A model generated the notes under the pieces. That model was not told where the DNA came from. It did not search any database and saw only the letters and a list, made by a program, of their open reading frames with translations. A stretch of DNA of 62,243 nucleotides, filler included, from Stramenopiles sp. TOSAG23-6 (Eukaryota): NCBI GenBank assembly GCA_900128565.1. It is 19 parts of 19 records of this genome, joined end to end, with 100 filler letters (N's around TTAATTAATTAA, not from the genome) between each part and the next. Parts side by side here need not be neighbours in the genome. Positions count along the whole stretch, not along the records: positions 3,302 to 6,499 come from LT637617.1; 18 more parts are not named here. One strand, given 5' to 3'. The position numbers were made by a program, and so were the translations under genes. Below are positions 2,551 to 44,362 of the stretch, piece by piece (positions within the stretch are counted from its first letter, which is position 1; each line of letters starts with the position of its first letter).

Positions 2551-3353
2551 TATATTACAGTTGCAAAAAATATGTAGATAGTAAAACTATTGTATGTATT
2601 TCAAACACAGAAGATTGATAAAATACACAGTAAATATGACTTCGCTTGGCGCACCAACGACGCACAGAGTCTTCTTCACTACACGACTTGACTGAGTCTG
2701 ACCGCGATGGTCGCGATGGTCTTGACACGCGTACAAAAAAAACATCAAAAAATACACGAAATATCCAAAATTTTAAAATAACTATAAAATGAAAATGTAA
2801 AAAAGACTATAGAAATGAATAATAGAATAGAGATAGTAGCTATATAGATAGTACGTAGCGTATAAGTAGTAGTTAGGCTATGACATTGTTTCACTTCAAA
2901 ATGAATAGATAAACATCACAAATAAAAAGTTTTATTTATTTCATGAAACAAAAAGTAATACAGAATTTATTAAATCACAATTTTTCAATAGCATAATAAC
3001 TAACTAGATATGCCATACATCTATAGGTTAAATTGATGGTTTTGATTGTGAAAAAAGGTCGCGTAATTCAACTGTAGTATAATAAAATATTCAGTTCAAA
3101 AGATTAAAAAGATGAGTCACAAAAATTGAAAAAAAAATTGAAAAAAAAATTGAAAAAAAAATTGAAAAAAAAATTGTTAGGTACAAAATTTACTAATAAA
3201 ANNNNNNNNNNNNNNNNNNNNNNNNNNNNNNNNNNNNNNNNNNNNTTAATTAATTAANNNNNNNNNNNNNNNNNNNNNNNNNNNNNNNNNNNNNNNNNNN
3301 NACAAAATTTCGTACGAAAAAAAAAATCGAATTTGAAAAAACATAAAACATAC

Positions 3354-4319: not shown

Positions 4320-6397
4320 ATGGTAGTATCATNGGAGAATGTTGAATCAATTGTACATAATGTGGTTNATAATACACAAGTAGTTGACCTTCATACTCAT
4401 TTATTNCCATTTACTCACGANGATTTATTTGTGTATGGCATTGATGAGTTATTGACATATCACTATCTCATTGCTGAGTTCTTTGCAGTTGCGTCGAATG
4501 AAATTTCCACTGAAGTGTTTTTCTCTCTGACAAAACAGAAACAAGCAGATTTGATTTGGTACAAACTGTTTATCCAGCGTTCCCCAATATCCGAGGCTTG
4601 TCTGGGCGTTTTGACAGTTCTAAAAAAGTTAGGTTTAGATACTTTCATTGTAAATCGTGATCTTCAAGGTATTCGTTCATGGTATGCAAAATTTTCACCA
4701 GAAGAATTTGAATCTTTAGTATTTACAAAAGCTAAAGTACGATATGCAGTCATGACTAATATCCCATTTGACCCAGTCGAAGCAAAACATTGGATGAACA
4801 ACAAAAAAGTTTCAAGTTATTATGTACGTTTTATTTTATTTTATTTTTTTTTTGTTTTTCGTACGAAATTTTGTACCTAACGAATTTTCAATTTTTTTTT
4901 TGAAATATTTTTCCAAAATAAACAAGTCTGCTCTGCGCGTAGATGCTTTACTTTCAGCCAATGGATGGGACACTGTCTCAAAATCGCTTGTTGCTGCTGG
5001 TTTTCCAGCATCTATTGAAGGAGCACGAGAATATTTACGATCTTGGATTAAACGAATGAACGTTTTCATTTCGATTTTTTTTTGAAATTTTTTTTTTCGT
5101 ACGAAATTTTGTACCTAACAAATTTTTTTAGATTTTTTTGAAATTTTTTTTTTATAAAAATTTTGTACCTAACAATTTTTTTTTTTATAGAAAAATTTTG
5201 AAATATTTTTTCACAATAAATATCTCCTGTATATTTGATGGCTTCGACGCCATGTGGATTTGCAACTCCTCTTCCGTACCAAAATTCCGTACCTAAAAAC
5301 CCTAACCCTAACAGCAGTGAAGAATCTCCCTCACCTCAAACACTTCTTGTTGATGTTATTATATACGTTGCTCGTGAACAAAATTTGGCTGTAGCGATGA
5401 AAATTGGCGCTGATCGATGTGTAAATCCTTGTTTGCACACAGCTGGTGATGTATATTTTCATCATGAATTTCAAATTTATTTATTTTTTTTTTTTTTATA
5501 GAAAATTTCAAATTTTTTTTTTTTTTTCAAAATTTTAAATTTTTTTAAACAATTTTCTGTTGTTTCACATTTTGTCAATATTATAGGGTGTCGAAGTCGC
5601 TGATCTTTCAATCATCAAATATTTCTGTCAAAATTTTCCAGATGTGAAATTTTTAGTCACTGTTCTATCAAGAGTAAATCAGCATCAATTAGTCGTATAT
5701 TCTCGAAAATTTCCAAATTTACATATTTGTACAATTTCATTATTCATTTTTCTTTCTTAAGTACAAAATTTCGTATGAAAAAAAAAAAATTCTTCCGTAC
5801 TGGTACCCTAACCCTAGCCCTAATTGTTCAATATCATTTATTGTGTACAATGTAATATTCTCAATGTTTTTTTCTTTTTGCTTTACTGTTAACAATTTAA
5901 TTTTTTTTTTAAATTTTTTTATGATTTTATGTACAGTATTCAATTAGGGTTAGGGTTTTATTTTTATGTATATATGAAAATTATATACGAAATTTTGTAC
6001 CTAACAATTTTTTGTTTTTTTTTCAATATATTGTTGTACACTATATATGGTTGTTGGTGGTTTTGTAACAATCCTAGTATTATTGAAGAAATCTCTAAAA
6101 TGCGAATTGAAATGTTAGGTACTGCTTTTACTGCTCAACATGGATGTTTTATTTTTTTTTTAAATTTGAAATTGAAATTGAATTTTTTTTTTTTTTTTTT
6201 TCATAGTAAATTTTGTACCTAACAATTTTTTTCTTTTTTTGGTAAAAAAAATTTTGAAATATTTTTCCAAAATACATTCTGATTCTCGTGTATTAGATCA
6301 ATTATTATATAAATGGGATCATTCGAGAACAATCATTGCAAATGCTTTGAGTATATATTATAAAAAACTTGTAAACACTGGGTGGGCATTGACTACT
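4320..6397 (+). CDS. Uronate (glucuronate) isomerase-like amidohydrolase; exons 4320-4823, 4924-5057, 5222-5450, 5587-5728, 6047-6141, 6278-6397; 3' truncated
   Basis: DLHTHL metal-binding HxH motif, GIDELLTYHYLIAE, SPISEAC, VMTNIPFD, NLHIYGCWWFCNNPS and TAQH|SDSRVLDQLLYKWDHSR. All are rebuilt by removing family introns. Confidence 0.85.
5058..5221 (+). other. Non-canonical intron GA..AT with two copies of the internal motif
   Basis: AT|GAACGTTTT...CACAATAAAT|A joins WIKRI-SPVYLMAS in frame. Confidence 0.7.
6142..6277 (+). other. Non-canonical intron GG..AT (slides within a CAT direct repeat)
   Basis: CAT|GGATGTTTT...GTACCTAAC...CCAAAATACAT|TCT restores the conserved QHSD motif. Confidence 0.85.
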
Positions 6398-6599: not shown

Positions 6600-9500
6600 T
6601 TTCTTTCTCTTATTTATCCGAGTATTTGTAGTATCATCTAGAAGAGCATCTTCAAGATGATTACTTCTTTTATGCATTTTAGATACCTTATTTTTATTTT
6701 TATGAGATGTTTTCCCACCATGTTTTGTTGAGGTCGAGTTCCTATTATTCTTATTTCTATGGGATCCTTTTTTTCTTTTCTTCTTTCTACCAGATTTTGA
6801 ACGCTTCACCTCACGGCCGATTAAAGCTTCCATGTTATTAAGACGAAAATTGAAATGATTCAAAGATAATCTTCGTGTATTACATGTATTTTGAAAAACT
6901 ATGTTTGAAGTTTTTAATTCGTTAGGTATGAAATTTCGTACTAAAAAAACAAATAAAATTCCTGGTGATAACGTACATAATCCAGATGCGTCATCATCAG
7001 CACCACGACAGTCCAATAAAGCCTTACAAGAATTCGTTTTTGACATTTGATTTTTTTTTTTGGTACTCTTCGAGTCATTATTTATTGGCAGATTATCAAT
7101 TTTATTAGAATGTCCAGCAATTACAAATAAACCTTCAGCAGACGACATGTATTTTGGGAAAATATTTCAATTGTTTTTTGTGAGGTACAAAATTTACTAT
7201 AAAAAAAAATCGATTTTTTTGTTTAAAAAAAAAATAAAACATACATTGACATATTTCCTTTTTGTGGTGAACTTTGAGAGCTGAGTTCAAAATGCTGGCT
7301 AGATGTAGATGTCTCCGGAAAGTTTTGAATTCTGTCACATTCCATATCATCTCCCTTTTTGTTTGAAATCTCTGTAGAATCTGTGGCTAATTCACTGTAA
7401 TTTGTATCACTTTCAGCAATTTTCTTTTCGTTGTATCTTTTTTTTTCATCACTACTATATTTTGGAAAAATATTTCAAAACTTTCTTAAAAAAAAAAATT
7501 GTTAGGTACAATATTTTTATAAAAAAAAAAATCATACAAAAAAAAATAAAACATACATATGTTGGGCTGAAGAATTACAGTCTAAGTTTGCTCGTAAAGT
7601 AATAGGTACATCGACATCTAAGTAGTTGTATAACTTTGATAATGTTTTAGGTAATTTGTTTTTAAAAATAAAAAGAGGCCATCGAGATAAAACATGTATT
7701 TTGGAAAAATATTTCAAAAAAAATCGTTAGGTACAAAATTGCGTACGAAAAAAAACTCGAATTTAAAAAAAATTAAAACATACCTCAGCTAGACTCGGCA
7801 GTTGTGTAACACCAGAATCAAGAAGAAGAGAGATGCGACCAAATAATTGTCTTATTTCCTTACGCACACTACGAGACACAGGATCTTTTGGTAATGCAAG
7901 TTCAAAGCGTAAAAGAATCTGTATTGTATACTCAATAATAGCCTCGTATGATTTTAGAGTAATAAAATTATTTTCTGTAGTACAATCCGCATTCGATTCA
8001 GGGCATTCATTTTCATTGTGTACGACTACACTTGATTTTATATCAAATATTCCAATAGGTGGATACATTTTAGCTAACTGTAAACGAGATTTGATCAAAT
8101 TCAAACGAATCCAAGTAAATATTTTTTCTCTGGGGTTTTCTATAGACAATTGTTTATTTCGTGTAATAGTTTCGATTGCATCAGGAATAGCATGTAAGAT
8201 AAAATAAGAAGGATCACTCGTATACTTTGGAGTTCCTTCCAAAATAGAACTGTCCGAAAGCAATTCTCGAAATAATTTCGACCCATTGGAAATAATCAAA
8301 TTATACTTTTCTTGAAGATCCTCAAAAATCTCTTCGATACGATCAAATTTTCCTTCATTTTTGTTTTCATTATTTACATGGATCGTTGTATCATGATTTC
8401 CTTCATTTTTGTTTTCATTATTTACATGGATCGTTGCATCATGATTGGATATGTTGATACATTTTTCACAGTTTGTATTAGGGTTAGGGTTACTCAACAT
8501 TGTCGTCGGACATTCAGACAATGTTTCATTGTATTTATTTTGTATTTCAGAATTATCTAATAAATTTTGTAAATCTTCTTCAGATGGAAAATTAGATGAG
8601 AAACATTTGATGGAGGAAGTTTTTTGATTTCCGTCAAATTTCTCTACTTTTTTATCATTTTTATTCTCCATATACATTTTCTCTAATTCATTCTGCAATT
8701 GTTGGAAACGTTCAACTTCTACATTTGGTGTACTATTAATAATATCAATAGATCCAATGATTGCACTATTTCTAATTGATTTATCTGATATTTTCGTCTG
8801 TACATTAATAGGTGTTTTCATCACAAAATCGTTATCGGAGGTATTCCTATTTGTTGTCAGGGAAGTTTCGTTTTTTAATGTGATTGGCTCAAGAGAATCT
8901 GACAATGTATCAGGTGAATCAAGTGCACTTTGTAAGGCTGTTGGAAAATGACGCGGTATATGTATTATGAAAAATATTTATTTTAGTCAAAAAACATTAT
9001 TAAGTACGAAATTTTCTACCAAAAAAAAAGTTATACCTAAGAAAAAACATACATTTGAAAAATTGAAATAAACGATGAAATAAATGATGAAAACATACAT
9101 AATGATATGTACAAGGTTTGTTTCTTGACATTGTTTTATCTATAGTAATGTCGTGTGCCGAATGAGAAGATCGTAGCGCTAAATCGTCTATTAAGTGAGG
9201 ACAAAATTGAACATTTTTACATTGACTAAACACAACTGATAGTAAGTTTTGTGGGTTTTGAGGAGATATTTTTTTGATTTTCAAGTCATCTGAATGTAAA
9301 TGTGTAACGTTAGGGTTATTCGTTGTAGTTGGTTCAATTGTATCATCACGCGACGTATCTACACGGGACACATTTGAAAAAACTAATGGAATACAATCTT
9401 TTACAAAATTCGTCTTTTTTTTTGGTGTTTTTGTTTTCACTGGTATTTGAAATTCATTTTCTTTACAAATTGCCATTGGCGATACATTCAATGCACTAGA

Positions 9501-9795
9501 TGTAGATTGAACTTCTCTTATTATTCCAATAGTATTTGATAATGGGAATAATAGCAAAGTTGTTCCTTTTCTCATGAAAGAATTAAGCTTTTGTTTTTCA
9601 TGTTTTTCATTTGTTTTTTTGTTGTTAGGGTTAGGGTTAGGGTTTGAATCTTCCTTTGAAACGTCTAGAATAGCACAGAAACCAACATGAAGCAATCGAG
9701 TGAGTAATATAGAAAGATTGCCTTTATTAGTAAAATTACCTACAGTAGAAGAATACTTTAAATATTTTTTTTCCTTTTCATTCAAAGGAGATTCA
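6600..9795 (-). CDS. Treslin/TICRR (Sld3-Treslin domain)-like replication initiation protein, multi-exon, both ends truncated
   Basis: Spliced IQILLRFELA..KEIRQLFGRISLLLD..SLAE|VLSRWPLFIFKNKLPKTLSKLYNYLDVDVP resembles, from memory, the Treslin STD region (QVFLRLE...IPKTLGNLYNSL). Basic low-complexity tail. Several family introns, e.g. 7783-7694. Confidence 0.5.
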
Positions 9796-12173: not shown

Positions 12174-13025
12174 TCATTCACCACAGTAAATTGATAAATA
12201 CACTTCACCAAATCCATAGCAATGCAACATATTATGACTACTATATTTACGTAACGTTTGTTTCCTACGAATCATTTTTATTTGTGCAACAGCCTGTTCT
12301 TCCAACGATCCCATTCGAATCCAAACAAATTCTGGAATTTCTGGATTTTCATCATTGATATCAATGAGATCAACATTTGGTGAAATACCAGGTGTTTCTT
12401 CATTACACTTTTGAAAAGGTAAATTCAATTCATCTGAAATCAACTCTACTGTTACACCGTCTTGACGCAAACCTGTCAATTTTAATATAGAATTATACGG
12501 AATTGGACTGGATACATATATTGTGAAACAATATTTCAAAATTTTTTTACATGGTTAAGTACAGAATTTCATACGAAAAAAAAAAAAAAAAATTCCAACC
12601 CTAACCCTAATTCAAATTTTGAAAATGTACATGTAAACCATCTAATTGAATACGGCTAAATTTCCCTTTGCTAGTATTTGATATTTCTGGTTCTATACCT
12701 AATGATACAGAATATTTCATATTTATTAGATTATCAGTATTATCATATAAACCATCAGCATCACCAATAACTTCAACAAATGTATTGTGAAAATTAAAAA
12801 AAAAAAAAAAAAAAAGTGTTAGGTATGAAATTTACTATAAAAATTTTATACGAATTTTTTTTTTTTTTGGAAAATGAAAATGGAAACGTACATGCACTAA
12901 GAATAGGAGAATATAAAGTTGAGTCATTAGGGTTAGGGCTATCTTCATTGTTCACATTATTTGGTATTTCTTCTGCTGTATCACCAAACAGTTCAGCAAC
13001 TCCATCTGTTGCATATAACGTCGCA
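12174..13025 (-). CDS. Hypothetical multi-exon protein, 3' part
   Basis: Three coding-like blocks separated by family introns, with internal motifs near 12555, 12818 and 13059. Confidence 0.55.
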
Positions 13026-13189: not shown

Positions 13190-16100
13190 TTTCTTTCTCT
13201 TATTTATCCGAGTATTTGTAGTATCATCTAGAAGAGCATCTTCAAGATGATTACTTCTTTTATGCATTTTAGATACCTTATTTTTATTTTTATGAGATGT
13301 TTTCCCACCATGTTTTGTTGAGGTCGAGTTCCTATTATTCTTATTTCTATGGGATCCTTTTTTTCTTTTCTTCTTTCTACCAGATTTTGAACGCTTCACC
13401 TCACGGCCGATTAAAGCTTCCATGTTATTAAGACGAAAATTGAAATGATTCAAAGATAATCTTCGTGTATTACATGTATTTTGAAAAACTATGTTTGAAG
13501 TTTTTAATTCGTTAGGTATGAAATTTCGTACTAAAAAAACAAATAAAATTCCTGGTGATAACGTACATAATCCAGATGCGTCATCATCAGCACCACGACA
13601 GTCCAATAAAGCCTTACAAGAATTCGTTTTTGACATTTGATTTTTTTTTTTGGTACTCTTCGAGTCATTATTTATTGGCAGATTATCAATTTTATTAGAA
13701 TGTCCAGCAATTACAAATAAACCTTCAGCAGACGACATGTATTTTGGGAAAATATTTCAATTGTTTTTTGTGAGGTACAAAATTTACTATAAAAAAAAAT
13801 CGATTTTTTTGTTTAAAAAAAAAATAAAACATACATTGACATATTTCCTTTTTGTGGTGAACTTTGAGAGCTGAGTTCAAAATGCTGGCTAGATGTAGAT
13901 GTCTCCGGAAAGTTTTGAATTCTGTCACATTCCATATCATCTCCCTTTTTGTTTGAAATCTCTGTAGAATCTGTGGCTAATTCACTGTAATTTGTATCAC
14001 TTTCAGCAATTTTCTTTTCGTTGTATCTTTTTTTTTCATCACTACTATATTTTGGAAAAATATTTCAAAACTTTCTTAAAAAAAAAAATTGTTAGGTACA
14101 ATATTTTTATAAAAAAAAAAATCATACAAAAAAAAATAAAACATACATATGTTGGGCTGAAGAATTACAGTCTAAGTTTGCTCGTAAAGTAATAGGTACA
14201 TCGACATCTAAGTAGTTGTATAACTTTGATAATGTTTTAGGTAATTTGTTTTTAAAAATAAAAAGAGGCCATCGAGATAAAACATGTATTTTGGAAAAAT
14301 ATTTCAAAAAAAATCGTTAGGTACAAAATTGCGTACGAAAAAAAACTCGAATTTAAAAAAAATTAAAACATACCTCAGCTAGACTCGGCAGTTGTGTAAC
14401 ACCAGAATCAAGAAGAAGAGAGATGCGACCAAATAATTGTCTTATTTCCTTACGCACACTACGAGACACAGGATCTTTTGGTAATGCAAGTTCAAAGCGT
14501 AAAAGAATCTGTATTGTATACTCAATAATAGCCTCGTATGATTTTAGAGTAATAAAATTATTTTCTGTAGTACAATCCGCATTCGATTCAGGGCATTCAT
14601 TTTCATTGTGTACGACTACACTTGATTTTATATCAAATATTCCAATAGGTGGATACATTTTAGCTAACTGTAAACGAGATTTGATCAAATTCAAACGAAT
14701 CCAAGTAAATATTTTTTCTCTGGGGTTTTCTATAGACAATTGTTTATTTCGTGTAATAGTTTCGATTGCATCAGGAATAGCATGTAAGATAAAATAAGAA
14801 GGATCACTCGTATACTTTGGAGTTCCTTCCAAAATAGAACTGTCCGAAAGCAATTCTCGAAATAATTTCGACCCATTGGAAATAATCAAATTATACTTTT
14901 CTTGAAGATCCTCAAAAATCTCTTCGATACGATCAAATTTTCCTTCATTTTTGTTTTCATTATTTACATGGATCGTTGTATCATGATTTCCTTCATTTTT
15001 GTTTTCATTATTTACATGGATCGTTGCATCATGATTGGATATGTTGATACATTTTTCACAGTTTGTATTAGGGTTAGGGTTACTCAACATTGTCGTCGGA
15101 CATTCAGACAATGTTTCATTGTATTTATTTTGTATTTCAGAATTATCTAATAAATTTTGTAAATCTTCTTCAGATGGAAAATTAGATGAGAAACATTTGA
15201 TGGAGGAAGTTTTTTGATTTCCGTCAAATTTCTCTACTTTTTTATCATTTTTATTCTCCATATACATTTTCTCTAATTCATTCTGCAATTGTTGGAAACG
15301 TTCAACTTCTACATTTGGTGTACTATTAATAATATCAATAGATCCAATGATTGCACTATTTCTAATTGATTTATCTGATATTTTCGTCTGTACATTAATA
15401 GGTGTTTTCATCACAAAATCGTTATCGGAGGTATTCCTATTTGTTGTCAGGGAAGTTTCGTTTTTTAATGTGATTGGCTCAAGAGAATCTGACAATGTAT
15501 CAGGTGAATCAAGTGCACTTTGTAAGGCTGTTGGAAAATGACGCGGTATATGTATTATGAAAAATATTTATTTTAGTCAAAAAACATTATTAAGTACGAA
15601 ATTTTCTACCAAAAAAAAAGTTATACCTAAGAAAAAACATACATTTGAAAAATTGAAATAAACGATGAAATAAATGATGAAAACATACATAATGATATGT
15701 ACAAGGTTTGTTTCTTGACATTGTTTTATCTATAGTAATGTCGTGTGCCGAATGAGAAGATCGTAGCGCTAAATCGTCTATTAAGTGAGGACAAAATTGA
15801 ACATTTTTACATTGACTAAACACAACTGATAGTAAGTTTTGTGGGTTTTGAGGAGATATTTTTTTGATTTTCAAGTCATCTGAATGTAAATGTGTAACGT
15901 TAGGGTTATTCGTTGTAGTTGGTTCAATTGTATCATCACGCGACGTATCTACACGGGACACATTTGAAAAAACTAATGGAATACAATCTTTTACAAAATT
16001 CGTCTTTTTTTTTGGTGTTTTTGTTTTCACTGGTATTTGAAATTCATTTTCCTTCCAAATTGCCATTGGCGATACATTAAATGCACTAGATGTAGATTGA

Positions 16101-16379
16101 ACTTCTCTTATTATTCCAATGGTATTTGATAATGGGAATAATAGCAAAGTTGTTCCTATTCTCATGAAAGAATTAAACTTTTGTTTTTCATGTTTTTCAT
16201 TTGTTTTTTTGTTGTTAAGGTTAGGGTTTGAATCTTCCTTTGAAACGTCAAGAATAGCACAGAAACCAACATGAAGCAATCGAGTTAGTAATATAGAAAG
16301 ATTGCCTTTATTAGTAAAATTACTTACAGTAGAAGAATACTTTAAATATTTTTTTTCCTTTTCATTCAAAGGAGATTCA
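13190..16379. repeat. Second copy of contig 6600-9795 (Treslin-like gene), allelic or assembly variant
   Basis: Same ORFs offset by 6590. Visible differences cluster in the last ~350 bp: several substitutions and a 6-bp indel in a TTAGGG tract. Confidence 0.95.
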
Positions 16380-16479: not shown

Positions 16480-16524
<45 letters not shown>

Positions 16525-16541
16525 TTTTTTTGGGAAAAAAA

Positions 16542-16585
<44 letters not shown>

Positions 16586-16589
16586 ATAC

Positions 16590-18460
16590 ATTGTAAACTT
16601 GAAGTTGCAACTGTATCTTTTGTACCAGATACTACAGTTAAAGGAGAAAACTGTATATTCCATAATAATGGCTTCCATTTTAAGGGACTCTGTGTTGTTT
16701 TAAAAAAAAAATTCAAAAATTTGTTAGGTATTTTTTTGAGTTTTTTGAGAAAAAAAAAATTTATCCAAAAAAAAAAAAAAAATATGTACAACATTTGAAA
16801 AAAAAAAACCTACAAAATATCCAATTTTACCACCCACAAAAAAAGACTTTATGAGTGAAACTATATTCGAATGTTTAAGCATTCCTACAGTCACCATATC
16901 AATAGTGCTTTTGTTGAAAATACTTAACACTAAAACTTTGAGGTCAAGTGCATTGATTGTTGCTTTTAGAACAACAGTTTTGTCCACAACGGTTGTAGAG
17001 CCTAAGTCTAAGAAAACGCCAAAATGTAATTCAATAGAAACATCTTTAAATTCTAATTGACTTTCAAAAGCTTCAGAACTTTTTGTATAGAACAAATCTG
17101 CCGTCAGAAAAGAATCTAAATTAAACACTTTAAGTTTCTTCACTGATATTATTAGATTACTCCTTTGATCATTTCGTTGTTGATCAACACCAAGCGTTAA
17201 CCTTTGTGTACCAGTCAAGAATTTAAAGAAATCAAATTTCTGAACAGTAGCACCTTGTTGAGCCGCTGGTTCTGGTTGAGCCGCTGGTTCTGGTTCATTC
17301 CTAATTAATAGTTGAGCCACTGGTTCTGGTTGAGCCGCTAGATCTGGAACCACATTTGCATTCCTAATTAATAGTTGAGGCGGATTCTCATTCTCCTCAT
17401 CTGCTGGCAAGATAGGAATGTCATTGTTAGGATCCAATTTTCCCGATGATTCAAAGACAAAACATGATTGAGCACTAGGGTTTGTAGATGAAGAGAAATC
17501 GTCACATTGCGTAAAGAGATTACGTATAATAGCGCTGATTTTGAGTTGCTCAGATTTTCCAATGGTCTCACCTAACACATCAGATATGTCTGTCGCAGTA
17601 GACTTGAGCCACTGTATTTCAATATTATACGGATCAACTGCATCGAACTGATTCTTAGCGATTAAATCGTCTTTAAAAGCAGTGACATTGTCCTCCAGTA
17701 GTGTTATATCTGGTTCTTCTGACAAACCAAAGTCAGCTTCACGACTATTCGTGTAACTTCCAAAAAATTGATCTACAGATTGCAACAATTTCTTCCCTCG
17801 TGTCATACCAAGTGGCACAAGAGTGTTGCATATAATTGAACTTAGAGGAAGAGTGTTTTGGAGAGCTCTACTGACAAGACTGAGGTCTTTTATTGAGACA
17901 TTCTTCACATGACAATGCTTCACGTTTCCTACGTCGTTTGGTAAAGACAGTTGCTCTTTAGACACCAATGATAAAGTTAAATCTACCGAAACGTTATCTA
18001 TCCCCCAAGTTGTATACGATTCCAAGATGGTTCTGGGCGCTGTTCCGCGCTCTTTAAACAACTCCAGAGTGAATGCCCCAGTGATCTTGATACTGAGGTC
18101 TCGTTCTGCCCTTCCATCAGAAATGAGCAGTCGGGAAGGGTCAATATCTAGTTGTGATAGCTTCAGATCCCTAATATGTAGTTTCTTGATATCTTTTAAT
18201 CCTGTCCAAGACATTGCAGAATCAACTGCAGAATTAACACGAGAACCAAACCACCCCCTTTCACTACTCGCGGTGGAGTCGGTGGAGTCGGTGGGGTCGG
18301 TGGAGTGTAAAGAAATAAGCGGGAACTTTACAGTGTTCAATACTTTGTTGAGATCTCCAAAAGGTTCCGAGACAACGCATTGAAGAATATAAAGGACCGA
18401 CAGTAACACAACTACATATCGTTGATGAGCAAAAGTACGCACGCGTCGGTGGAAATACAT
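16590..18460 (-). CDS. Hypothetical signal-peptide or membrane-anchored protein, 3' truncated
   Basis: Long ORF with a hydrophobic segment VVVLLSVLYILQCVVS, beta-rich segments and internal AAQPEP repeats. Ends in family introns. Confidence 0.7.
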
Positions 18461-18894
18461 CGTTTTTGAGGGACGAGAATTCCAAGCTTTGTTGCTTTTG
18501 TTTCTTTCTTGTTTCTTTTGTGTTTTTGTTACAGTTTTACACCAGTACCATAGACAAAACCAGGAAATATAGTCAGTCATTTTTGCTGAGATCATTTTAT
18601 TATTTTAAGTACGAAATTTCGTATATATACGAATTTGTGATCAACGATCAAATTCGTTTTGACAGGAACTAAAAAATGGGTACCGGGTAACATTTTGTAC
18701 GTGGGAAACCGGGTATCCGAAGAAGATATCCGTTAAAAATCAAAAACGAATCTTTTACTCTTCTGTATAAGGTGGGAAAGCTATACCCTTTATTCCAGAG
18801 ATATTCATCTATTTGACATTTGCTTTCGTTTAAAAGTTATCAAATACATTACAAAGCAGCTGAGCTGTAGTACTACCTTTATTTCAATCGTTCA

Positions 18895-19669
18895 ATGGAG
18901 GAAAAATACCGAGAAGAAGCTGATAAAGACTTTTCAGATCTTCAACTTAGTAAGGAGAGAAACTTACTTGAAAGGGCAAAAGCGCAAGAAAAAGAAATAA
19001 AGCGTGCGCTTGAAAGAGAAGTAGCTAAACTAGAACAGGATCGAGAAAAGAAATATTATGAAGATAAATTCAATAATTTGTCGACCCCCAACGTGAGTCC
19101 CACACACTCGATGGAACAATTGACGGCAAGGGACGCAAAAGAACAAGAACGACAAAATCAAATTCTGTTTCAATTGCAGAGAGAAACAGATATGTCCGAC
19201 AAAGGAATATGGAACAAAGAACCAATTCTACTGGAGTTACAGAAAGAAAGACAAAAAAATATGGACCTTTTAGAGGAACAAAGACGACTCTTAAAAGAGA
19301 GAGACAAAGAATCGCAGCTTCTATTAGAACTGAAGAGGGAGAGAAATGCCAATGTGTCCCTTTTAGAAAAAGAAAAACAATCATTATTGGAAAGACAAAA
19401 AAAGGTGATTCGTGAACAATCATTATTGGAAAGACAAAAAAAGTTGACTCGTGAAAGAGAATTAGGGATTATCAGTCAAGCAAATTATGATGAACGGGAA
19501 GCAAACCTTTTATCAGATTTGAAAACAGAAAGAGCGAAAAATACAGCCTTTGAAAATGCTTTATTGCAGAAAGACCGAGAGATTGCGAGGAGAGCAAAAG
19601 ATCAAGAACGGGAAGCAAAACTTGATTTGAAGAGAGAGAGGGACAAAAATGTAGCTTTTTTAAAAGAAG
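18895..19669 (+). CDS. Coiled-coil E/K/R-rich hypothetical protein, 3' truncated
   Basis: Open frame to the contig end with repeated LLxELxxER heptads. Confidence 0.7.
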
Positions 19670-19769: not shown

Positions 19770-19814
<45 letters not shown>

Positions 19815-19831
19815 TTTTTTTGGGAAAAAAA

Positions 19832-19875
<44 letters not shown>

Positions 19876-22800
19876 ATACATTGTAAACTTGAAGTTGCAA
19901 CTGTATCTTTTGTACCAGATACTACAGTTAAAGGAGAAAACTGTATATTCCATAATAATGGCTTCCATTTTAAGGGACTCTGTGTTGTTTTAAAAAAAAA
20001 ATTCAAAAATTTGTTAGGTATTTTTTTGAGTTTTTTGAGAAAAAAAAAATTTATCCAAAAAAAAAAAAAAAATATGTACAACATTTGAAAAAAAAAAACC
20101 TACAAAATATCCAATTTTACCACCCACAAAAAAAGACTTTATGAGTGAAACTATATTCGAATGTTTAAGCATTCCTACAGTCACCATATCAATAGTGCTT
20201 TTGTTGAAAATACTTAACACTAAAACTTTGAGGTCAAGTGCATTGATTGTTGCTTTTAGAACAACAGTTTTGTCCACAACGGTTGTAGAGCCTAAGTCTA
20301 AGAAAACGCCAAAATGTAATTCAATAGAAACATCTTTAAATTCTAATTGACTTTCAAAAGCTTCAGAACTTTTTGTATAGAACAAATCTGCCGTCAGAAA
20401 AGAATCTAAATTAAACACTTTAAGTTTCTTCACTGATATTATTAGATTACTCCTTTGATCATTTCGTTGTTGATCAACACCAAGCGTTAACCTTTGTGTA
20501 CCAGTCAAGAATTTAAAGAAATCAAATTTCTGAACAGTAGCACCTTGTTGAGCCGCTGGTTCTGGTTGAGCCGCTGGTTCTGGTTCATTCCTAATTAATA
20601 GTTGAGCCACTGGTTCTGGTTGAGCCGCTAGATCTGGAACCACATTTGCATTCCTAATTAATAGTTGAGGCGGATTCTCATTCTCCTCATCTGCTGGCAA
20701 GATAGGAATGTCATTGTTAGGATCCAATTTTCCCGATGATTCAAAGACAAAACATGATTGAGCACTAGGGTTTGTAGATGAAGAGAAATCGTCACATTGC
20801 GTAAAGAGATTACGTATAATAGCGCTGATTTTGAGTTGCTCAGATTTTCCAATGGTCTCACCTAACACATCAGATATGTCTGTCGCAGTAGACTTGAGCC
20901 ACTGTATTTCAATATTATACGGATCAACTGCATCGAACTGATTCTTAGCGATTAAATCGTCTTTAAAAGCAGTGACATTGTCCTCCAGTAGTGTTATATC
21001 TGGTTCTTCTGACAAACCAAAGTCAGCTTCACGACTATTCGTGTAACTTCCAAAAAATTGATCTACAGATTGCAACAATTTCTTCCCTCGTGTCATACCA
21101 AGTGGCACAAGAGTGTTGCATATAATTGAACTTAGAGGAAGAGTGTTTTGGAGAGCTCTACTGACAAGACTGAGGTCTTTTATTGAGACATTCTTCACAT
21201 GACAATGCTTCACGTTTCCTACGTCGTTTGGTAAAGACAGTTGCTCTTTAGACACCAATGATAAAGTTAAATCTACCGAAACGTTATCTATCCCCCAAGT
21301 TGTATACGATTCCAAGATGGTTCTGGGCGCTGTTCCGCGCTCTTTAAACAACTCCAGAGTGAATGCCCCAGTGATCTTGATACTGAGGTCTCGTTCTGCC
21401 CTTCCATCAGAAATGAGCAGTCGGGAAGGGTCAATATCTAGTTGTGATAGCTTCAGATCCCTAATATGTAGTTTCTTGATATCTTTTAATCCTGTCCAAG
21501 ACATTGCAGAATCAACTGCAGAATTAACACGAGAACCAAACCACCCCCTTTCACTACTCGCGGTGGAGTCGGTGGAGTCGGTGGGGTCGGTGGAGTGTAA
21601 AGAAATAAGCGGGAACTTTACAGTGTTCAATACTTTGTTGAGATCTCCAAAAGGTTCCGAGACAACGCATTGAAGAATATAAAGGACCGACAGTAACACA
21701 ACTACATATCGTTGATGAGCAAAAGTACGCACGCGTCGGTGGAAATACATCGTTTTTGAGGGACGAGAATTCCAAGCTTTGTTGCTTTTGTTTCTTTCTT
21801 GTTTCTTTTGTGTTTTTGTTACAGTTTTACACCAGTACCATAGACAAAACCAGGAAATATAGTCAGTCATTTTTGCTGAGATCATTTTATTATTTTAAGT
21901 ACGAAATTTCGTATATATACGAATTTGTGATCAACGATCAAATTCGTTTTGACAGGAACTAAAAAATGGGTACCGGGTAACATTTTGTACGTGGGAAACC
22001 GGGTATCCGAAGAAGATATCCGTTAAAAATCAAAAACGAATCTTTTACTCTTCTGTATAAGGTGGGAAAGCTATACCCTTTATTCCAGAGATATTCATCT
22101 ATTTGACATTTGCTTTCGTTTAAAAGTTATCAAATACATTACAAAGCAGCTGAGCTGTAGTACTACCTTTATTTCAATCGTTCAATGGAGGAAAAATACC
22201 GAGAAGAAGCTGATAAAGACTTTTCAGATCTTCAACTTAGTAAGGAGAGAAACTTACTTGAAAGGGCAAAAGCGCAAGAAAAAGAAATAAAGCGTGCGCT
22301 TGAAAGAGAAGTAGCTAAACTAGAACAGGATCGAGAAAAGAAATATTATGAAGATAAATTCAATAATTTGTCGACCCCCAACGTGAGTCCCACACACTCG
22401 ATGGAACAATTGACGGCAAGGGACGCAAAAGAACAAGAACGACAAAATCAAATTCTGTTTCAATTGCAGAGAGAAACAGATATGTCCGACAAAGGAATAT
22501 GGAACAAAGAACCAATTCTACTGGAGTTACAGAAAGAAAGACAAAAAAATATGGACCTTTTAGAGGAACAAAGACGACTCTTAAAAGAGAGAGACAAAGA
22601 ATCGCAGCTTCTATTAGAACTGAAGAGGGAGAGAAATGCCAATGTGTCCCTTTTAGAAAAAGAAAAACAATCATTATTGGAAAGACAAAAAAAGGTGATT
22701 CGTGAACAATCATTATTGGAAAGACAAAAAAAGTTGACTCGTGAAAGAGAATTAGGGATTATCAGTCAAGCAAATTATGATGAACGGGAAGCAAACCTTT

Positions 22801-22959
22801 TATCAGATTTGAAAACAGAAAGAGCGAAAAATACAGCCTTTGAAAATGCTTTATTGCAGAAAGACCGAGAGATTGCGAGGAGAGCAAAAGATCAAGAACG
22901 GGAAGCAAAACTTGATTTGAAGAGAGAGAGGGACAAAAATGTAGCTTTTTTAAAAGAAG
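19770..22959. repeat. Duplicate of contig 16480-19669
   Basis: Identical ORF set offset by 3290 and identical ends. Confidence 0.97.
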
Positions 22960-26405: not shown

Positions 26406-27122
26406 ATTTTCTCACGTTCTTTTCGTTTTTCTAATGTTCTTGTTTTTCCTCGCATTACCCTTGATGCGGTTAATGTACCGTTGTTATCTCGACCTAAACT
26501 TCGGTGTGAAGCATTCATGTATTATGAAAAATATTTTCTTTTGTGAAATTTGTTAGGTACGGAATTGTTTTTACGAAAAAAAAAATACAAATATGAAATT
26601 CAAATTGAAAATGTACATGTCTTTGTGCTCGTCAAGTTTTTCACGAACTTTTGAATCAATCGTTTGATAATCAGTGAGCTCATTCAGCTCAGTATTCATT
26701 GCCTGACGTATTGCTAGAGTTGCGGTTGGTCTAGCAAATGGAGGTGGTGCTGGTTTCTTTGAACGAACGGGTTTCTTTTTCAATTCACGCTGTGTTAAAT
26801 AAGTATAGACTTTACTAAGAAAAGGAACAACATACCCTTCTTTGCTGTACACAAGACCATTGACTTCTTCCTCGGAAAGGTCAAATTCTCTTTTACTGAA
26901 ATATCTTTGAAGCATCTCCCAATTATCTTTGCGTGCCTTCATCGAAATACCATTGTCATATGAGTGCATTTGCACATTACGAGCGTCATATCTCGAAAAT
27001 ATTTCAGCGACAAGAAAACCATTTGAAAAGTCTCGTTTGACATTCTTGACGGAATATGCAAGGTCAAGACTTTGAATCCAGCGGAGAATTTCCCTTGGTA
27101 AACGGTCGTCATTTCTAGACAT
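26406..27122 (-). CDS. SPATA4/SPEF1-like calponin-homology (CH_2) flagellar protein, 3' truncated
   Basis: LPREILRWIQSLDLAYSVKNVKRDFSNGFLVAEIFSRY..KDNW. A GT..AT intron at 26616-26517 joins in frame. Confidence 0.85.
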
Positions 27123-28247: not shown

Positions 28248-29335
28248 TCATATAAAATACTTTGAGCTTGCTAAATTTGCAGCTAAAATTGCGGTCCTTA
28301 CTTCACTATCTCTCAAATCTAACCCACTAAAACTCAATTTTCTAGGGTTATGCGTAGAATCAGAAAAAGGATGTATTTTGGAAAAATATTTGAAAAAAAA
28401 AAACTAAAATTTGTTAGGTACAAATTTTCGTACGAAAAATAAATTAAAAATTGAAAAAACATACATATTCTTTACTATTTACATCATTATTTGCAGGATG
28501 GAATCCAACATTTCGTGTGACACTGATATAATTCCATCTGTAATCTTTTATTCGTTTTAATGCAAGATTGGAGTACATCTGTGCTAAACCCTCCGGGGCA
28601 CCTGCACTCATGGATTATGAAAAAATATTTCGAAAAAAAATCTTTAGGTACAACATTTCGTACGAAAAAAAAAATTAAAATTTTGAAATTCATGATGAAA
28701 AAATAAACGTACATTGCTGCAGCTTTCCCAGCATTATATAATCGTCTGGAGTCAGTAATTCCACTGGAGTGTATTTCCTGCATAATAGATGTATTATGAA
28801 AAAGTATTTTACAATCAAATTTTTCGTTAGGTACAAAATTTTTAAGTAAAAAATATAAATTCGAAATTCAAAATTTTCAACTAAAAAAAAATAAATTCGA
28901 AATTCAATTTTGAACACATACATAAAGTCAAAATATCCCAATTAGGATTCGACTTATCACAACTTTTTTCATCAGCGGTTGATTCTACATTTTGATTATT
29001 CATAAAGGCAAATACCGGGGTTTTAGTTAATTTTTTCGTACGATATTTCAAGATGACTTTCTTCATGTGTTGTGAAAAAATATATATTTTTTTTTTTTTT
29101 TTGGTTTAAAAAAAATATATATTTTTTTTTTTTTTTGGTTTAAAAAAAATCGTTAGGTACAAAATTTCGTACGAAAACAAAATATTAATATTTACAATTT
29201 AATTTTGAAAATGTACATTCCTGCTCGAAATATTTTCCAGCCATCAGATCTCATTGAATACTTTCTTAAAAGTTGCCGATGTTTTGGACAAGCAGTGTAT
29301 CTACGGAAAAGGTCTTGAAATCCAAATATATAGTA
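28248..29335 (-). CDS. Hypothetical multi-exon protein, 3' part
   Basis: Five short coding blocks separated by family introns. The junction AAA-M-SAGAPEGLAQ is in frame. Confidence 0.5.
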
Positions 29336-29709: not shown

Positions 29710-30835
29710 ATTTCAAAGTCTTTTGATTGAATATAATGAGATTGAAATATAGGATAATAATTCAGCATACTTTTTACTGCGGCATTGAAAGATAAGCAAC
29801 ATGCTTCATGGCAATTCGATATCTCTTGTGAAAAATCACGAAATAATAATGAAAGTATACCAACTCCAGTTTTAGCTAGTAAACAAAGTTCATGATTACC
29901 CTGGCCTATTGGTAGTTCAACAATTTTCTCCAAAATTTTCAAAACAGTAGGGATAAAATTCTTCACAATTTCGATATATATTGAACCATTCGTGGTTGAA
30001 CGCATGTCTTGTGAAAAATATTTCAAAAACAAATCTAAAAAAAATTGTTAGGTACAAAATTTCGTATAAAAAACGTTAGGTACAAAATTTCGTATGAAAA
30101 ACGTATATATCCTGTAGATGTTCAAGACATCTTTTGACTAAAGTGAGAGCTCGGACATGTGTTAGATGACTAAAGACTTTTGTGCCCTCCTCCAGAACCC
30201 ACAGAGACTGAGATACGTATTGTGAAAAATATTTTCAATTCGAAATTCGTTAGGTATGGATTTTCGTACGATAAAAAGTACATTCGAAATTCAATTTTGA
30301 AAACGCACATGAATCGCGGGAAAAGTTCAGCTACAAGAGTATCAGGCACGTCTGAAACCAAAATGCACATACATGAAAGAGCACCTTCTGCTTGACTAGA
30401 ATTTAAATTGTCAGCTTTTTGAATAAGCCCAAATAGACCATCCATGAGCTCGGGCCATTCTTCAGGCCAGTCATTCGAGGCAATCAAGGCAATGCAAACT
30501 GCTGATGCAGTTCTGATTTTGCCACTGGTGTCACTCAAGCCACATGGAATACGCACACGAATGTACGCCTTCTCATCTGCGAGGATAACACGTTCACAAG
30601 CTGTAATTGGTTTCCATCTAGCTTCACAAAGCTGCCTCAGAATGACGCCAGATAATTGCCTCAGTGCAAGGCGAATGCCATTTGTAACTAAGATATCGAC
30701 GAGAGTTCTGGCAAAACCATCAATATTTTTAAAAGATTCTATTGCTTGCTCTGCAGACTGTCGCGTTGTAAGGTCAGGGGATAGAGTTCCTTCTAACACC
30801 CGAAGGGCTTGCATTTGTTGTCCCTCTGTCACCAT
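29710..30835 (-). CDS. IPO9: Importin-9-like karyopherin, 5' part
   Basis: IBN_N-like RQSAEQAI..LRQLSGVILRQLCEARW and IRTASAVCIALIASNDWPEEWPEL. Introns 30308-30215 (GT..GT) and 30106-30004 (AT..AT) keep the frame open. Confidence 0.8.
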
Positions 30836-32990: not shown

Positions 32991-33625
32991 ACACTGATTT
33001 GTTCAGTTCTTGTACAAGTCTACTTAATATTTTTTACTTATTTGCATTTCTATCATCCAGAAAAATTTGCAAATCGTACAACATGGATCCTTCTTTTTTT
33101 TGTAGATTTTTTCTTTTTTGGTTACAGTATATATTGTGCTTTTGCTTTATCCAGCAGAGAATTTGGTATGTTAATGTTCAACTTTTTTTCAATTTCAAAT
33201 TTATTTTTCGTACGAAATTTTGTACCTAACAAAAAAATGAAAAAATATTTTTTCACAATATAGGTACTTGGATCATAGAATCAGATAATGGACAAAGTGT
33301 AGATTCTCAGAAAGAAAAGTATACTGCAGCAAGTGTTCTTATTTGGGGTGCTACTATTACAGCGCTTCATATATTATTACATACCATTGCTATGCTTGGT
33401 TGGTGTATGCCCAATGGAATCAATAATTTAAATTTGTCAAATGGAGAAGAAAAAAATACGAAAAAAAATGAAAAAACTGAGAACAAACACGGGAAAAAGA
33501 AACATGCAAATAAGTCTGATGCGCAAGAAGTTGGACAAAGTGATACATCAAACAAAACAAGTTCAAAAACTTCAGGAGGTAGGTCTGGGAAATCTAAAGA
33601 TTCTTATTTTAGTCAACAAGCATGA
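32991..33625 (+). CDS. Multi-pass membrane protein, 3' part
   Basis: Three hydrophobic segments. Family-type intron 33166-33263 has canonical GT..AG ends and joins REFG-TWIIES. Confidence 0.6.
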
Positions 33626-41750: not shown

Positions 41751-42101
41751 ATCGATAGAGACACTAGATTAGCACTTTAATAAATTAATACAAGCCTTTC
41801 TTATATTCCAATCTTTCTTCAACAATTTCTCACAACTAAACGTAACTCAATGGGTTGTACACTGAATAGGGTTCTTCGATAAGGAGCGGACTACCTTTTT
41901 TGTTACGTACTATTGCGGGTCTTGCATGGAGAACGTGCTCTCGACGACCTCGACTCTCTCTCGCGAGTTCATTCAATTCCAATTTTTTTTTTTTACCTAG
42001 GCTAGACGGGCAGTTTTGTTCCTTGGAATGAATTGAAATAATTTCAAAGGTTCAAAAAAAAAATTGAAAAAATTTAGACAGCCCTGGCTAAACGCTACAC
42101 A

Positions 42102-42767: not shown

Positions 42768-44312
42768 TTTTTTTTTTTTTTTTTCAAAGGAATTTTTTTC
42801 CCTAACTTTTTTTTTTTTTTTTTACTAACCAAAAAAAAAAAAAATTAATATTTTTCCAAATTACATCCAGTTTTATTATCTACACTGACTAATGAAGAAA
42901 AAGCTTATATAGATTTGACAATAACTAAAAAAACTAAAAAAACTAAAAAAAACAAAAATTCTACATCTGATGATAGCCCTAACCCTAACAAAAAATCTAC
43001 AAATTCCAAAAATTCCAAAAAACGAAAATCTAAAGATTTATCTAAAGAAATATCAACAGAATCGATTATACCCAACCCTAACCCTAATTCACCAAAAAAG
43101 AAGAAAAAAAAATCACCAAAAAAAAAACACGAAAAATTAACAAAATTGTTTCAAGCAGTACAAAATATTATGCACAATTGTCAAAAACATGAAAAAATAT
43201 TTTTTTCCTTTTACTCAAAACAATTAAAACCATTTGTATCTCAGCATGTGTTATCAAAATTACCAAAATTAACTGACCTTGAAAGAAGTTTTATTTGTAT
43301 GTAGTCAAACATTCAAAACATTTCAAAAAATAATTTCATACGAAATTTTTGTACCTAACCAAAAAAACCAAAAAAATTTAAATTTTTTTTTTTTTCATAC
43401 GAAATTTTGTACCTAACATTTAAAAAAAAATATATAATTAAAGCAGCACAGATGATAACTTATTTGATCCCGGGACACCATCATCTGTTGTTCAACCAAT
43501 CGGGATTGGAAATGTATCTAAAAAGCTAACTCTTTATACTCATCAATTAAAAGGGTTTGAATGGTTATTGTACATGTTTGATAGAGGTATGCATCCAATT
43601 CTTGCGGATGAGATGGGTCTAGGGAAAACCATCCAAACAATTACATGCATGTTTTATTTTTTTCAAATTTTTTATCTACATTTTTTTTTTTTTTGGTAAA
43701 AAAATTTTGTACCTAACAGAAAAAATCAAAAAAAATATTTTTTCACAATTACATTTATTGCTTCATTAAAATTAGATAGAAAGTTACCAGGTACTTTTCT
43801 AATAATAGTTCCACTCAGCGTTATTTCGAATTGGATGATCGAAATCCAACGATGGTGTCCCACATTACGTGCAGTTCGACTTCATGTACGTTTTTGTATT
43901 TCAATTTTTTTTTTTTAAATTTAAAAAAAAAAAAAAAAAAAAAATTTTCAAATAATTTTTTTTTCCCAAAAAAAAAATGTACCTAACAAAATTTAATTCT
44001 TTTTTTTTTTTTTTTTTTCACACAATAAATACCTATGAAAAAACAGAGAGGGACCGCATTCGTGATAGTATCATTCAAGATATGAATGAATTAGATATTG
44101 TTGTTACAACGTATGAAACTGTGAAAGGAAAAGATATGATATCTAGTCTTATTCATCAAACAACTTGGCTTGGTGTTGTGTTGGATGAGGCACATCGCAT
44201 AAAAAATGAAAAAAGTAAAACATCAGTGGTTTTGTCACACATCAAAGCATGTATAAAGATATTATTAACTGGAACTCCATTACAAAATAACATGTATGTT
44301 TTACATTATACC

Positions 44313-44344
<32 letters not shown>

Positions 44345-44362
44345 TTTAAAAAATTTTTTAAA

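Follow-up and report, generated by a model that had tools for sequence, protein, structure and literature searches.

The window described here is the whole stretch of 62,243 bases taken from the assembly of Stramenopiles sp. TOSAG23-6 (GCA_900128565.1), and its genes are interrupted by a family of short introns that mostly begin with GT and end with AT. The stretch consists of 19 contigs in size order, each 3,157–3,201 nucleotides (nt) long, with linkers of N runs around a 12-nt spacer. The DNA is AT-rich (G+C 24–43% per 2 kb), and the genes are readable in the standard code. Pfam matches were found to a kinesin motor, an SNF2-related helicase, the U5 116-kDa protein (EFTUD2), a Rab-like GTPase, an importin-beta N-terminus, ankyrin repeats, a CH_2 domain and a PAS domain. 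For the EFTUD2 protein, the closest named relatives belong to the stramenopiles, with oomycetes and ochrophytes both among them. Contigs 16480–19669 and 19770–22959 are identical. Contigs 6600–9795 and 13190–16379, the only near-identical pair, differ by nine substitutions and one 6-nt indel, none of them within an intron. Contig 42768–45939 is its own reverse complement, a perfect palindrome whose centre (about 44294–44413) lies inside a family intron.

Both strands were read, and 41 unique complete introns were catalogued, each with at least 15 open codons on either side after conceptual removal; a 42nd (30308–30215) was added later. Introns on duplicated contigs were counted once. The survey covers 62 kb of a fragmented assembly, and the introns were located by motifs derived from the family, so that other kinds of intron in poorly conserved genes might escape detection. 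The introns are 64–278 nt long (median 106), with a mean G+C content of 18%. Among the 42, the 5′ dinucleotide is GT in 38 and GA, GG, GC and AT in one each, while the 3′ dinucleotide is AT in 35, AG in five, GT in one and AC in one, the AC end being uncertain.

The donor follows the consensus GTAYGTTTT (G40, T38, A38, Y41, G36, T41, T36, T34, T35 of 41). A motif TACYTMAY is present in 36 of the 42 introns, mostly within a longer internal module, TTCGTACGAAATTTTGTACCTAAC, where TACCTAAC resembles a branch site. The median distance between the putative branch A of TACYTMAY and the 3′ end is 40 nt, and a T-rich tract accompanies the branch-like TACCTAAC at the usual distance from that end. The last eleven bases approximate YCAMAATAYAT, within a fixed 3′ module ...ATATTTTTC[CA][AC]AATAYAT/, where the slash marks the splice junction, and exon 2 begins with G in 22 of 41 cases. 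By these features the build of the introns appears spliceosomal, and we infer the removal junctions from open reading frames (ORFs) in 42 cases and from protein collinearity in five.

The kinesin gene (49809–52468, plus strand) fixes the register of removal. Its relative P0001 is 62% identical over exon 1, and a tblastn comparison of P0001 with the window is collinear across five interruptions: MNH/TSSRSH (intron 1, 50442–50540), KESI/NINSG (intron 2, 50693–50772), LGNV/ISALGD (intron 3, 50810–50905), IAC/VSPAD (intron 4, 51029–51120) and EKM/QHMD (intron 7, 52060–52337). Introns 1 and 2 run from GT to AT with a CAT repeat, and intron 7, at 278 nt, runs from GT to AT (CTAT) and contains several degenerate core modules. 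Two of the five junctions lack the AT repeat, since the exon ends with GTT before intron 3 and with TGC before intron 4. At these two junctions removal is GT...AT, or else a slide of only 1–2 nt (TG..TA, TA..TG, AT..GT); at intron 3 the slide is limited to 1 nt (TG..TA). The collinear junctions without an AT repeat therefore indicate that the register is GT...AT and not AT...AC. GT...AT is the one register compatible with all junctions; AT..AC is compatible only where AT is repeated. A register shifted by 4 nt (/GTTTTA...ATAC/) was rejected, as it places two extra residues inside the conserved MN..SSRSH and GKTIQTI.F. The three non-repeating junctions singled out in a preliminary description of this DNA (7694–7783, 50810–50905 and 51029–51120) are real, with left repeats of 0, 1 and 0 nt. 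Protein databases gave no transcript-level support: a search at near length yielded only P0241, a 67%-identical relative whose ORF departs from the kinesin alignment after ELYGEEL and which is uninformative on the intron family.

The introns are also related to each other in sequence. In an all-against-all blastn comparison each of the 41 introns had partners (mean 30.9), against 0.37–0.63 for five shuffled query sets, and the alignments often ran from end to end, mostly at 68–87% identity. A 24-nt core, TTCATAGTAAATTTTGTACCTAAC at 6200–6223 in the plus-strand intron 6142–6277, occurs 35 times at up to three mismatches, a count that includes duplicated contigs, with none expected from 100 shuffles. 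In most of the cores, for instance at 4858–4869, there is a perfect 12-nt palindrome, TTTCGTACGAAA, with two GTAC sites 8 nt apart just 5′ of TACCTAAC. This is odd for a mere branch region and may mark a place where a protein binds. Close to the 5′ end, a 26-nt segment, TTTCATCATGAATTTCAAATTTATTT, which has no evident role in splicing, is exact in three introns of three contigs and genes (51531–51658 and 5451–5586 on the plus strand and 59624–59718 on the minus strand), with none expected. The two ends also vary together over a distance of about 90 nt: the 5′ variant GTATGTTTTA pairs with the 3′ variant CCAAAATACAT, and GTAYGTTTTC pairs with CA[CT]AATACAT, which indicates two subfamilies. For A at +10 against A at −8 the counts were 10, 4, 4 and 24 (Fisher p 4e-4; best permutation p 0.0005 among 132 position pairs), a pair picked after the data had been seen, so that its p-value serves only as an indication.

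Twenty-six introns were used to build a profile, which was run over the window with nhmmer and gave 61 non-duplicate strong matches (40 bits or more). Of these, 46 fall within introns of the catalogue and share their strand, eight are cut by contig ends, six are uncatalogued candidates and one is an antisense core. The intron 6142–6277 scores 79.6 bits. One of the truncated copies (58875–58986, plus strand) scores 77.1 bits, and seven more strong matches end at contig ends (6400–6498, 13028–13092, 29638–29709, 36208–36270, 42768–42866, 46041–46126 and 55827–55887). At least eight contig ends thus lie inside family copies, indicating that the assembly breaks at this repeat. The antisense core lies in kinesin intron 5 (51317–51456, plus strand, GTACGT..ACAT), where the core is inverted at 51323–51402 (minus strand, 42.9 bits). 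Tandem core modules are found in three further introns, two modules in each: 43297–43443 (modules at 43336–43417) and 5058–5221 (5096–5173) on the plus strand, and 30004–30106 (30047–30098) on the minus strand. Rearrangements of this kind are DNA-level. A weak minus-strand family-like copy (5735–5792, 30 bits) lies between two plus-strand genes and could belong, as an intron, to a transcript of the minus strand.

Exon order can be followed in three conserved genes, and every interruption found there is a family member. The kinesin gene has seven complete introns, five of them fixed by collinearity, and one partial; the SNF2-like gene has three complete and one partial, checked by the order of Pfam matches only; and EFTUD2 has one. 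Members ending in AG, such as 33166–33263 and 7455–7556, and in GT are otherwise ordinary, indicating that the last base is free to vary within the family. Exact segments outside the signals, linked end variants, an inverted core and tandem modules together make independent selection for long signals insufficient. The introns are very probably copies of one repeated sequence, related by common descent.

Individual members on the plus strand are as follows. The intron 6142–6277 (GGATGTTTTA...TTCCAAAATACAT, 136 nt, phase 0) is flanked by a 4-nt direct repeat, ACAT at the end of both exon and intron. Upstream of it in the same contig are 4824–4923 (GTACGT..., exon end AT), whose 3′ end is uncertain, with AC at 4923 or AG at 4926 each in frame; 5058–5221, which has a non-GT donor (GAACGT..AAAT, exon end AAT); 5451–5586 (GTATAT..ATAG, an AG end, exon end AT); and 5968–6031 (GTATAT..ATAT), a family copy just 5′ of the ORF that holds 6142–6277. 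The last is probably, with some uncertainty, an intron of the 5′-untranslated region. The kinesin intron 6 (51531–51658) reads GTTTGT..ACAT after the exon end CGT. The SNF2-like gene contains 43297–43443 (AG end, exon end TT), 43647–43754 (GCATGT..TTACAT) and 43886–44030 (GTACGT..AAAT, exon end CAT). The second of these has a 10-nt direct repeat, ACAATTACAT, whose exon copy encodes the end of GKTIQTIT. Other plus-strand members are 33166–33263, a full family member with an AG end (CACAATATAG) after TG; 46544–46642 (GTGCGT..ACAT, CAT repeat); 56092–56184 (GTATGTTAGGG..ATAT, ATAT repeat); 61438–61579 (GTACGT..ATAT, exon end AT); and 61894–62010 (GTATGT..AAAT, exon end AT).

On the minus strand, introns of the form GTATGT..ACAT after an exon end AT are found at 7147–7244 (second copy 13737–13834), 8960–9098 (second copy 15550–15688), 28371–28464, 28789–28921, 57095–57196 and 56791–56926, the last with 82% end-to-end identity to 6142–6277. 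Exon end AT also precedes 6884–6976 (GTACGT..ACAT; second copy 13474–13566), 1289–1537 and 53367–53532 (both GTACGT..ATAT), 28610–28712 (GTACGT..CCAT), 29065–29216 (GTACAT..ACAT) and 12516–12630 (GTACAT..ATAT, with an internal TTAGGGTTAGGG tract). A CAT repeat flanks 12780–12891 (GTACGT..ACAT) and 36582–36698 (GTATGT..ACAT), and an ACAT repeat flanks 26517–26616 (GTACAT..ACAT) and the EFTUD2 intron 39546–39649 (GTACGT..ACAT). The intron 7455–7556 (second copy 14045–14146) has an AG end, required by the frame, despite an exon AT. Exon ends other than AT precede 7694–7783 (GTATGT..ACAT after GAG, no repeat; second copy 14284–14373), 59307–59459 (GTTTGT..AAAT after AC, no repeat) and 59624–59718 (GTACGT..AAAG, an AG end, after TT). 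Two neighbouring introns of the importin-like gene deviate from GT..AT in different ways: 30004–30106 starts with ATACGT, that is with A at +1, and ends in ACAT after an exon AT, and 30215–30308 reads GTGCGT..ACGT after CAT, where only the GT end leaves the frame open to the next donor. In both introns the frame is preserved by these ends alone. Changes at +1 and −2 therein seem to be tolerated by the splicing machinery.

The exon ends in AT before 33 of the 41 catalogued introns, or 34 of 42 with the added one. Among exonic GT sites in 14,969 nt of long exons, AT precedes 88 of 776 (11.3%; binomial p 2.4e-24 for the 33 of 41). A further 12 donors, whose introns run off a contig end or have no secure 3′ end, are preceded by AT in 10 cases. 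The preliminary count of AT before 22 of 28 donors is thus borne out by 44 of 54 in all, an excess far above chance, and the longer repeats were correctly placed (ACAT at 6142, CAT at 50442 and 50693, ACAATTACAT at 43647). The repeat extends in degenerate form to YAT: position −3 is C or T in 30 of 41 exons and 34 of 41 intron ends, and among the 42 introns YAT precedes the donor in 26 and closes the intron in 31. Exon AT is commoner with AT-ending introns (30 with, 5 without) than with AG-ending ones (2 with, 3 without; Fisher p 0.046), a weak hint of a real repeat.

How did the family come to occupy so many genes? We lean towards multiplication by insertion, with the AT as a mark of the insertion site. 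An introner-like element would have spread by copying into the (Y)AT^G sites of numerous genes, most likely as DNA. The AT before the donor would then be either a 2-bp duplication of the target or the result of insertion, between A and T, of an element ending TGTAY...RTACA. The same AT would now also form part of a signal read by the spliceosome at both ends (YAT/GT...YAT/), with (Y)AT/GTAYGTTTT as the donor; whatever the origin of the family, the exon AT probably also works within the 5′ signal today. A DNA element is preferred because most described introner families show DNA-type signatures in the accessible parts of Gozashti et al. (2022), and because the rearrangements seen here are DNA-like. 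The narrower claim, that the element was a DNA transposon with a true 2-bp AT duplication, is possible but falls short of probable. The sequence shows the AT excess, the GT..AT register at five junctions and the common descent of the introns; spread by insertion, a DNA and not an RNA intermediate, AT as a duplication and removal by the spliceosome go beyond this and are inferred.

A number of observations weigh against this reading. Following the Methods section of Gozashti et al. (2022), we tested for a target-site duplication (TSD) by comparing per-position matches of 5′ and 3′ junctions within introns with those of shuffled 5′/3′ pairings. No locus-specific match was found beside the AT: there were 16 matches against 13.1 expected at −3 (p 0.18), 33 against 31.9 at −1 and 21 against 21.7 at +1 of exon 2. 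Direct repeats of at least 3 nt flank 13 introns (10.4 expected) and those of at least 4 nt flank six (4.1 expected); the 10-nt repeat at 43647 is the sole one to exceed the shuffled pairings (p 0.023). With no locus-specific match at −3 (16 of 41), a duplication longer than 2 bp, such as YAT, was rejected. In the parts of Gozashti et al. (2022) available to us, a repeat that matches only across introns, without a locus-specific position, is classed as ambiguous. Where a TSD with at least one locus-specific matching position is taken as the mark of a miniature inverted-repeat transposable element (MITE), only the invariant AT matches here. From the sequence, a 2-bp AT duplication is indistinguishable from insertion between A and T as a site preference, or from a consensus of the splice signal.

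Nor do the ends behave as terminal inverted repeats (TIRs). Their complementarity extends over 4–6 nt, and pairing each 5′ end with its own 3′ end gives no higher a sum (68) than shuffled pairings do (69 expected). GTAT...ATAC is perfect in 11 of 41 introns and ATGTAT...ATACAT in nine. The earlier statement that ATGTAT...ATACAT ends are exact reverse complements holds for the consensus; it does not hold for most introns, and the intron cited for it, 6142–6277, starts with GGATGT and has ends that are not exact complements. There is no compensatory variation: −6 remains A whether +4 is T or C, and +1 remains G whichever of C, T and A stands at −3. Set against TIRs of at least 6 nt as expected of MITE-like elements, those here are 4 nt, or 6 with the flanking AT included. 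RNA folds of 10 introns gave z-scores of 0.92, −1.09, −1.16, −0.24, 0.10, −3.13, −0.32, −1.11, −3.36 and 0.66, only two of them below −3. Neither a consistent fold nor an end-joining helix was seen among these 10, a 4-bp end helix appearing in some minimum-energy folds only; a hairpin or end-pairing model was rejected on these folds. No transposase-like Pfam domain was found in the 43 ORFs of the window. None of the 61 strong profile matches is a clear free-standing copy, 46 interrupting ORFs of the same strand and one lying antisense inside an intron, while the other 14 are cut by contig ends or are uncatalogued, with orientation not checked. The pairwise identity, mostly 68–87%, indicates that the family is not obviously young. 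Of the introner (transposon-derived) origin put forward in the preliminary description, the part that is supported is that the introns share one repeated sequence, as an introner-like expansion would predict; a GTAT..ATAC transposon with an AT duplication is not supported, given the ambiguous repeat, a 4-bp TIR intact in 11 of 41 introns, no transposase domain in the 43 ORFs and no clear free-standing copy.

The AT pattern could also arise without any mobility. The exon AT would be the exonic part of an altered 5′ consensus read by a changed U1 or U5, the intron AT would be the 3′ site, and old introns would look alike since a divergent spliceosome needs long signals. In form, YAT/GTAYGT...YAT/G(T) is the canonical MAG/GT...YAG/G(T) with T for G at both −1 positions, the frequent G of exon 2 included. 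The AT matches across introns only, the clear copies are sense and genic, and all four non-GT donors follow an exon AT, as compensation would predict, a number too small to test. Against these points stand the identity in segments outside the signals (the exact 26-nt triplicate and end-to-end identities of 70–87%) and the linked 5′ and 3′ variants, which indicate descent from master copies and not selection site by site; an inverted core and tandem modules would likewise be unexpected from selection on signals. As an account of the origin this is unlikely, although as a description of the present role of the AT it can be compatible with origin by insertion.

Another possibility is spread through RNA. 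Spliced-out introns would reverse-splice into (Y)AT/G sites of other transcripts and be copied back into the genome, leaving no TSD, and the AT would be the preferred context of the ligated exons. Reverse splicing has been proposed for fungal introner-like elements, and ascomycete introner families likewise lack TSDs and TIRs, according to the accessible text of Gozashti et al. (2022). The window agrees in several respects: the copies that interrupt ORFs are sense, there is no clear free-standing copy, no locus-specific duplication or real TIR was seen, and the 43 ORFs include no transposase. However, the inverted core in 51317–51456 and the weak minus-strand copy at 5735–5792 are easier to obtain at the DNA level, the 10-nt repeat at 43647 is left unexplained, and a sense bias would also be expected of DNA elements in a compact genome, because unspliceable insertions would be lost. 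The orientation count itself comes from a gene-dense window of 3-kb contigs. We regard an RNA route as quite unlikely, and prefer insertion of a DNA element.

An alternative reading of the junctions themselves is that these are AT...AC introns, with the true register /ATGTAYGT...ATAC/ made possible by the repeated AT and with A(+1)/C(−1) pairing as in minor-type introns. Such a register had been considered formally possible at many junctions. This is so at 34 of 42, where the AT is repeated and the mRNA would be the same, but it is excluded at the eight without an exon AT, two of them by protein collinearity. At 50810 it would turn the V of LGNVI into D (LGNVISALGD to LGNDI...), and at 51029 it would break IAC/VSPAD; the register was rejected at the junctions without a repeat. 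U12-type introns are defined by the 5′ motif /RTATCCTT and by the branch motif TCCTTAAC near the 3′ end, and minor-type introns have the branch motif about 10–26 nt from that end. Here the donor is GTAYGTTTT, not ATATCC-like, and TACCTAAC is farther from the 3′ end, at a median of 40 nt. The likeness to U12-type AT-AC introns is thus that an A-T/A-C terminal reading is formally possible at most junctions, whereas neither the 5′ motif nor the branch distance fits, nor do the junctions that lack an AT repeat, and we consider this register highly improbable. Least credible of all is that the segments are DNA eliminated from a somatic genome, the assembly representing the unprocessed form: ciliate internal eliminated sequences are short, AT-rich and precisely bounded, with short terminal repeats and inverted ends, an anatomy that the segments here share, but the standard code, the GTAYGT donor, the TACCTAAC motif and T-rich tract at the usual distance from the 3′ end and the stramenopile affinity of the best named relatives do not fit, and nothing points to two forms of the genome.

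If the introns arose by insertion, as we favour, an invading element would have changed the splicing rules genome-wide, from GT...AG to GT...AT, and the co-evolution of splice signals with small nuclear RNAs (snRNAs) or U2AF would be directly testable. In its fullest form, which we put forward tentatively and regard as rather doubtful, essentially the whole intron complement of this uncultured marine protist would be one introner family, with long signals of its own and a 3′ AT supplied by the insertion site, and the spliceosome would since have been retuned (exon −1 T, the TACCTAAC branch, and a 3′ A followed by T or G). That this GT...AT introner-like family has passed unnoticed in the public gene models of the assembly forms part of the same doubtful proposal. 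Were it true, nature would have supplied an instance in which a mobile element rewrote the splicing code of a lineage. Co-evolution would appear as a U1 5′ end pairing with exon −1 U, a U2 branch-binding site fitting UACCUAAC and an altered or duplicated U2AF1. Rfam and tRNA scans of the window gave no match, and hence no snRNA.

The EFTUD2 gene illustrates what such introns may do to annotation. Its top match, P0121 (eukprot:GSMAST32.ASY1.ANO1.1389.1), is identical to the window ORF except for five gaps, and is therefore a gene model of the same contig. The model (39546–41768, minus strand) reads through the GT..AT intron 39649–39546, so that intron sequence forms its C-terminus (...CTFLKLIFLHTFYFRMKLHT). 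From the uninterrupted ORF it further leaves out five in-frame pieces, one of which (about residues 643–693) overlaps the Pfam EFG_III match at 624–682. From the one public model compared, it seems that forced GT-AG gene finding mis-annotates this genome, and gene counts and 'pseudogene' calls for such assemblies may be distorted.

Some other features of the window were recorded. Telomere-like (TTAGGG)2–3 tracts occur at 5300, 5806, 5944, 8478, 9625–9642, 11496, 12599, 12927, 42977, 43076, 58659 and 61695, in coding exons (as NPNPN or LGLGLG), in introns (12516–12630, 56092–56184) and between genes; counting the duplicated contigs, there are 9 + 9 matches at up to one mismatch. In one exonic tract the near-identical contigs disagree by a single unit (9625–9642 against 16215–16226). 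At 5805–5955, inverted telomere-like tracts (CCCTAACCCTAGCCCTAATTG ... CAATTAGGGTTAGGG) border an AT-rich piece of about 110 nt that separates two plus-strand genes. This region, which also has weak minus-strand family-like copies (5735–5792, and a 3′-end-like motif ending at 5836), could represent a further small mobile element or else a short transcript of the minus strand. On the minus strand at 49027–49113 a 12-nt unit (ATTTTACATTAC-like) is repeated in a short tandem array, which scores as repeated acceptor-like motifs 3′ of a long ORF.

Introners are reported by Huff et al. in 2016 to be short DNA transposons that create introns. For those of Micromonas, Aureococcus and dinoflagellates it is proposed that one splice site comes with the element and the other from the duplicated target, so that removal is seamless (Gozashti et al. 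2022, in its accessible parts). The family described here resembles them in comprising many similar introns in unrelated genes of an aquatic protist. The same text gives those introners locus-specific duplications of 3–9 bp and/or TIRs of at least 6 nt, with GY..AG ends, whereas here there are an invariant 2-nt repeat, inverted ends of 4–6 nt that are mostly imperfect and a 3′ site AT. Amoebophrya introner elements have inverted repeats of 8–20 nt and direct repeats of 3–5 nt in the available text of Farhat et al. (2021). With these and with the nonconventional introns of euglenids, as far as the sources at hand describe them, the present family shares non-canonical boundaries, short direct repeats over the exon/intron borders and complementary ends. 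Theirs are inverted repeats of 8–20 nt that fold the ends together, with very variable terminal dinucleotides, whereas the 10 folds here show no such helix and the ends are stereotyped. Ascomycete introner-like elements, in the same parts of Gozashti et al. (2022), are similar in being regular-looking introns with a genic and sense bias and no clear TSDs or TIRs, and differ in their GT..AG ends and in the reverse splicing proposed for them.

In the literature searched, the phrase 'GT-AT introns' was not found, nor was any account of a class of GT...AT introns or of this lineage having unusual ones, though supplements and further journals may bear on it. Of the genome papers on marine stramenopile (MAST) lineages, the accessible text of PMC5778133 describes no unusual introns ('intron' appears twice, including in the gene-prediction section, and 'splice' and 'canonical' do not), and neither does PMC12614181 (neither 'intron' nor 'splice'). 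A 2025 introner survey, by the portion of it available, accepted AG and AC 3′ sites, and mainly non-canonical families were dropped unless transcript or RNA-seq alignments supported them. Under these rules a GT...AT family could have been missed, and annotation-dependent surveys that accept only AG or AC 3′ sites without RNA-seq would miss such a family.

The closest parallel is the tunicate Fritillaria borealis. The available portions of the papers on this species (PMC13326754, PMC11282704, PMC7789003) describe non-canonical AG/AC and AG/AT intron classes, in which a YAY triplet often directly precedes the 5′ site and also makes up the final three bases of the intron. These non-canonical introns occupy species-specific positions, and a derivation from MITEs has been proposed for them (PMC11282704, in its accessible text). 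As described in the same portions, the two systems differ in several ways. Here the 5′ end remains GT in 38 of 42 introns, the 3′ end alone being unusual, whereas non-GT 5′ ends are the main classes in Fritillaria; here there are one dominant pair of ends and one recognisable family with a long conserved interior, in contrast to many classes; and the host there is an animal in which species-specific positions and splicing have been demonstrated, against a protist here whose best named relatives are stramenopiles. What they share, on the same sources, is a whole intron population outside GT/AG, intron ends that include AT, and the YAY triplet in both places, here as YAT in 26 and 31 of 42 introns; the MITE-like origin is a proposal of theirs. 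If the proposed origin of the GT...AT family is correct, the case of Fritillaria would have an independent counterpart in a remote branch of the eukaryotes.

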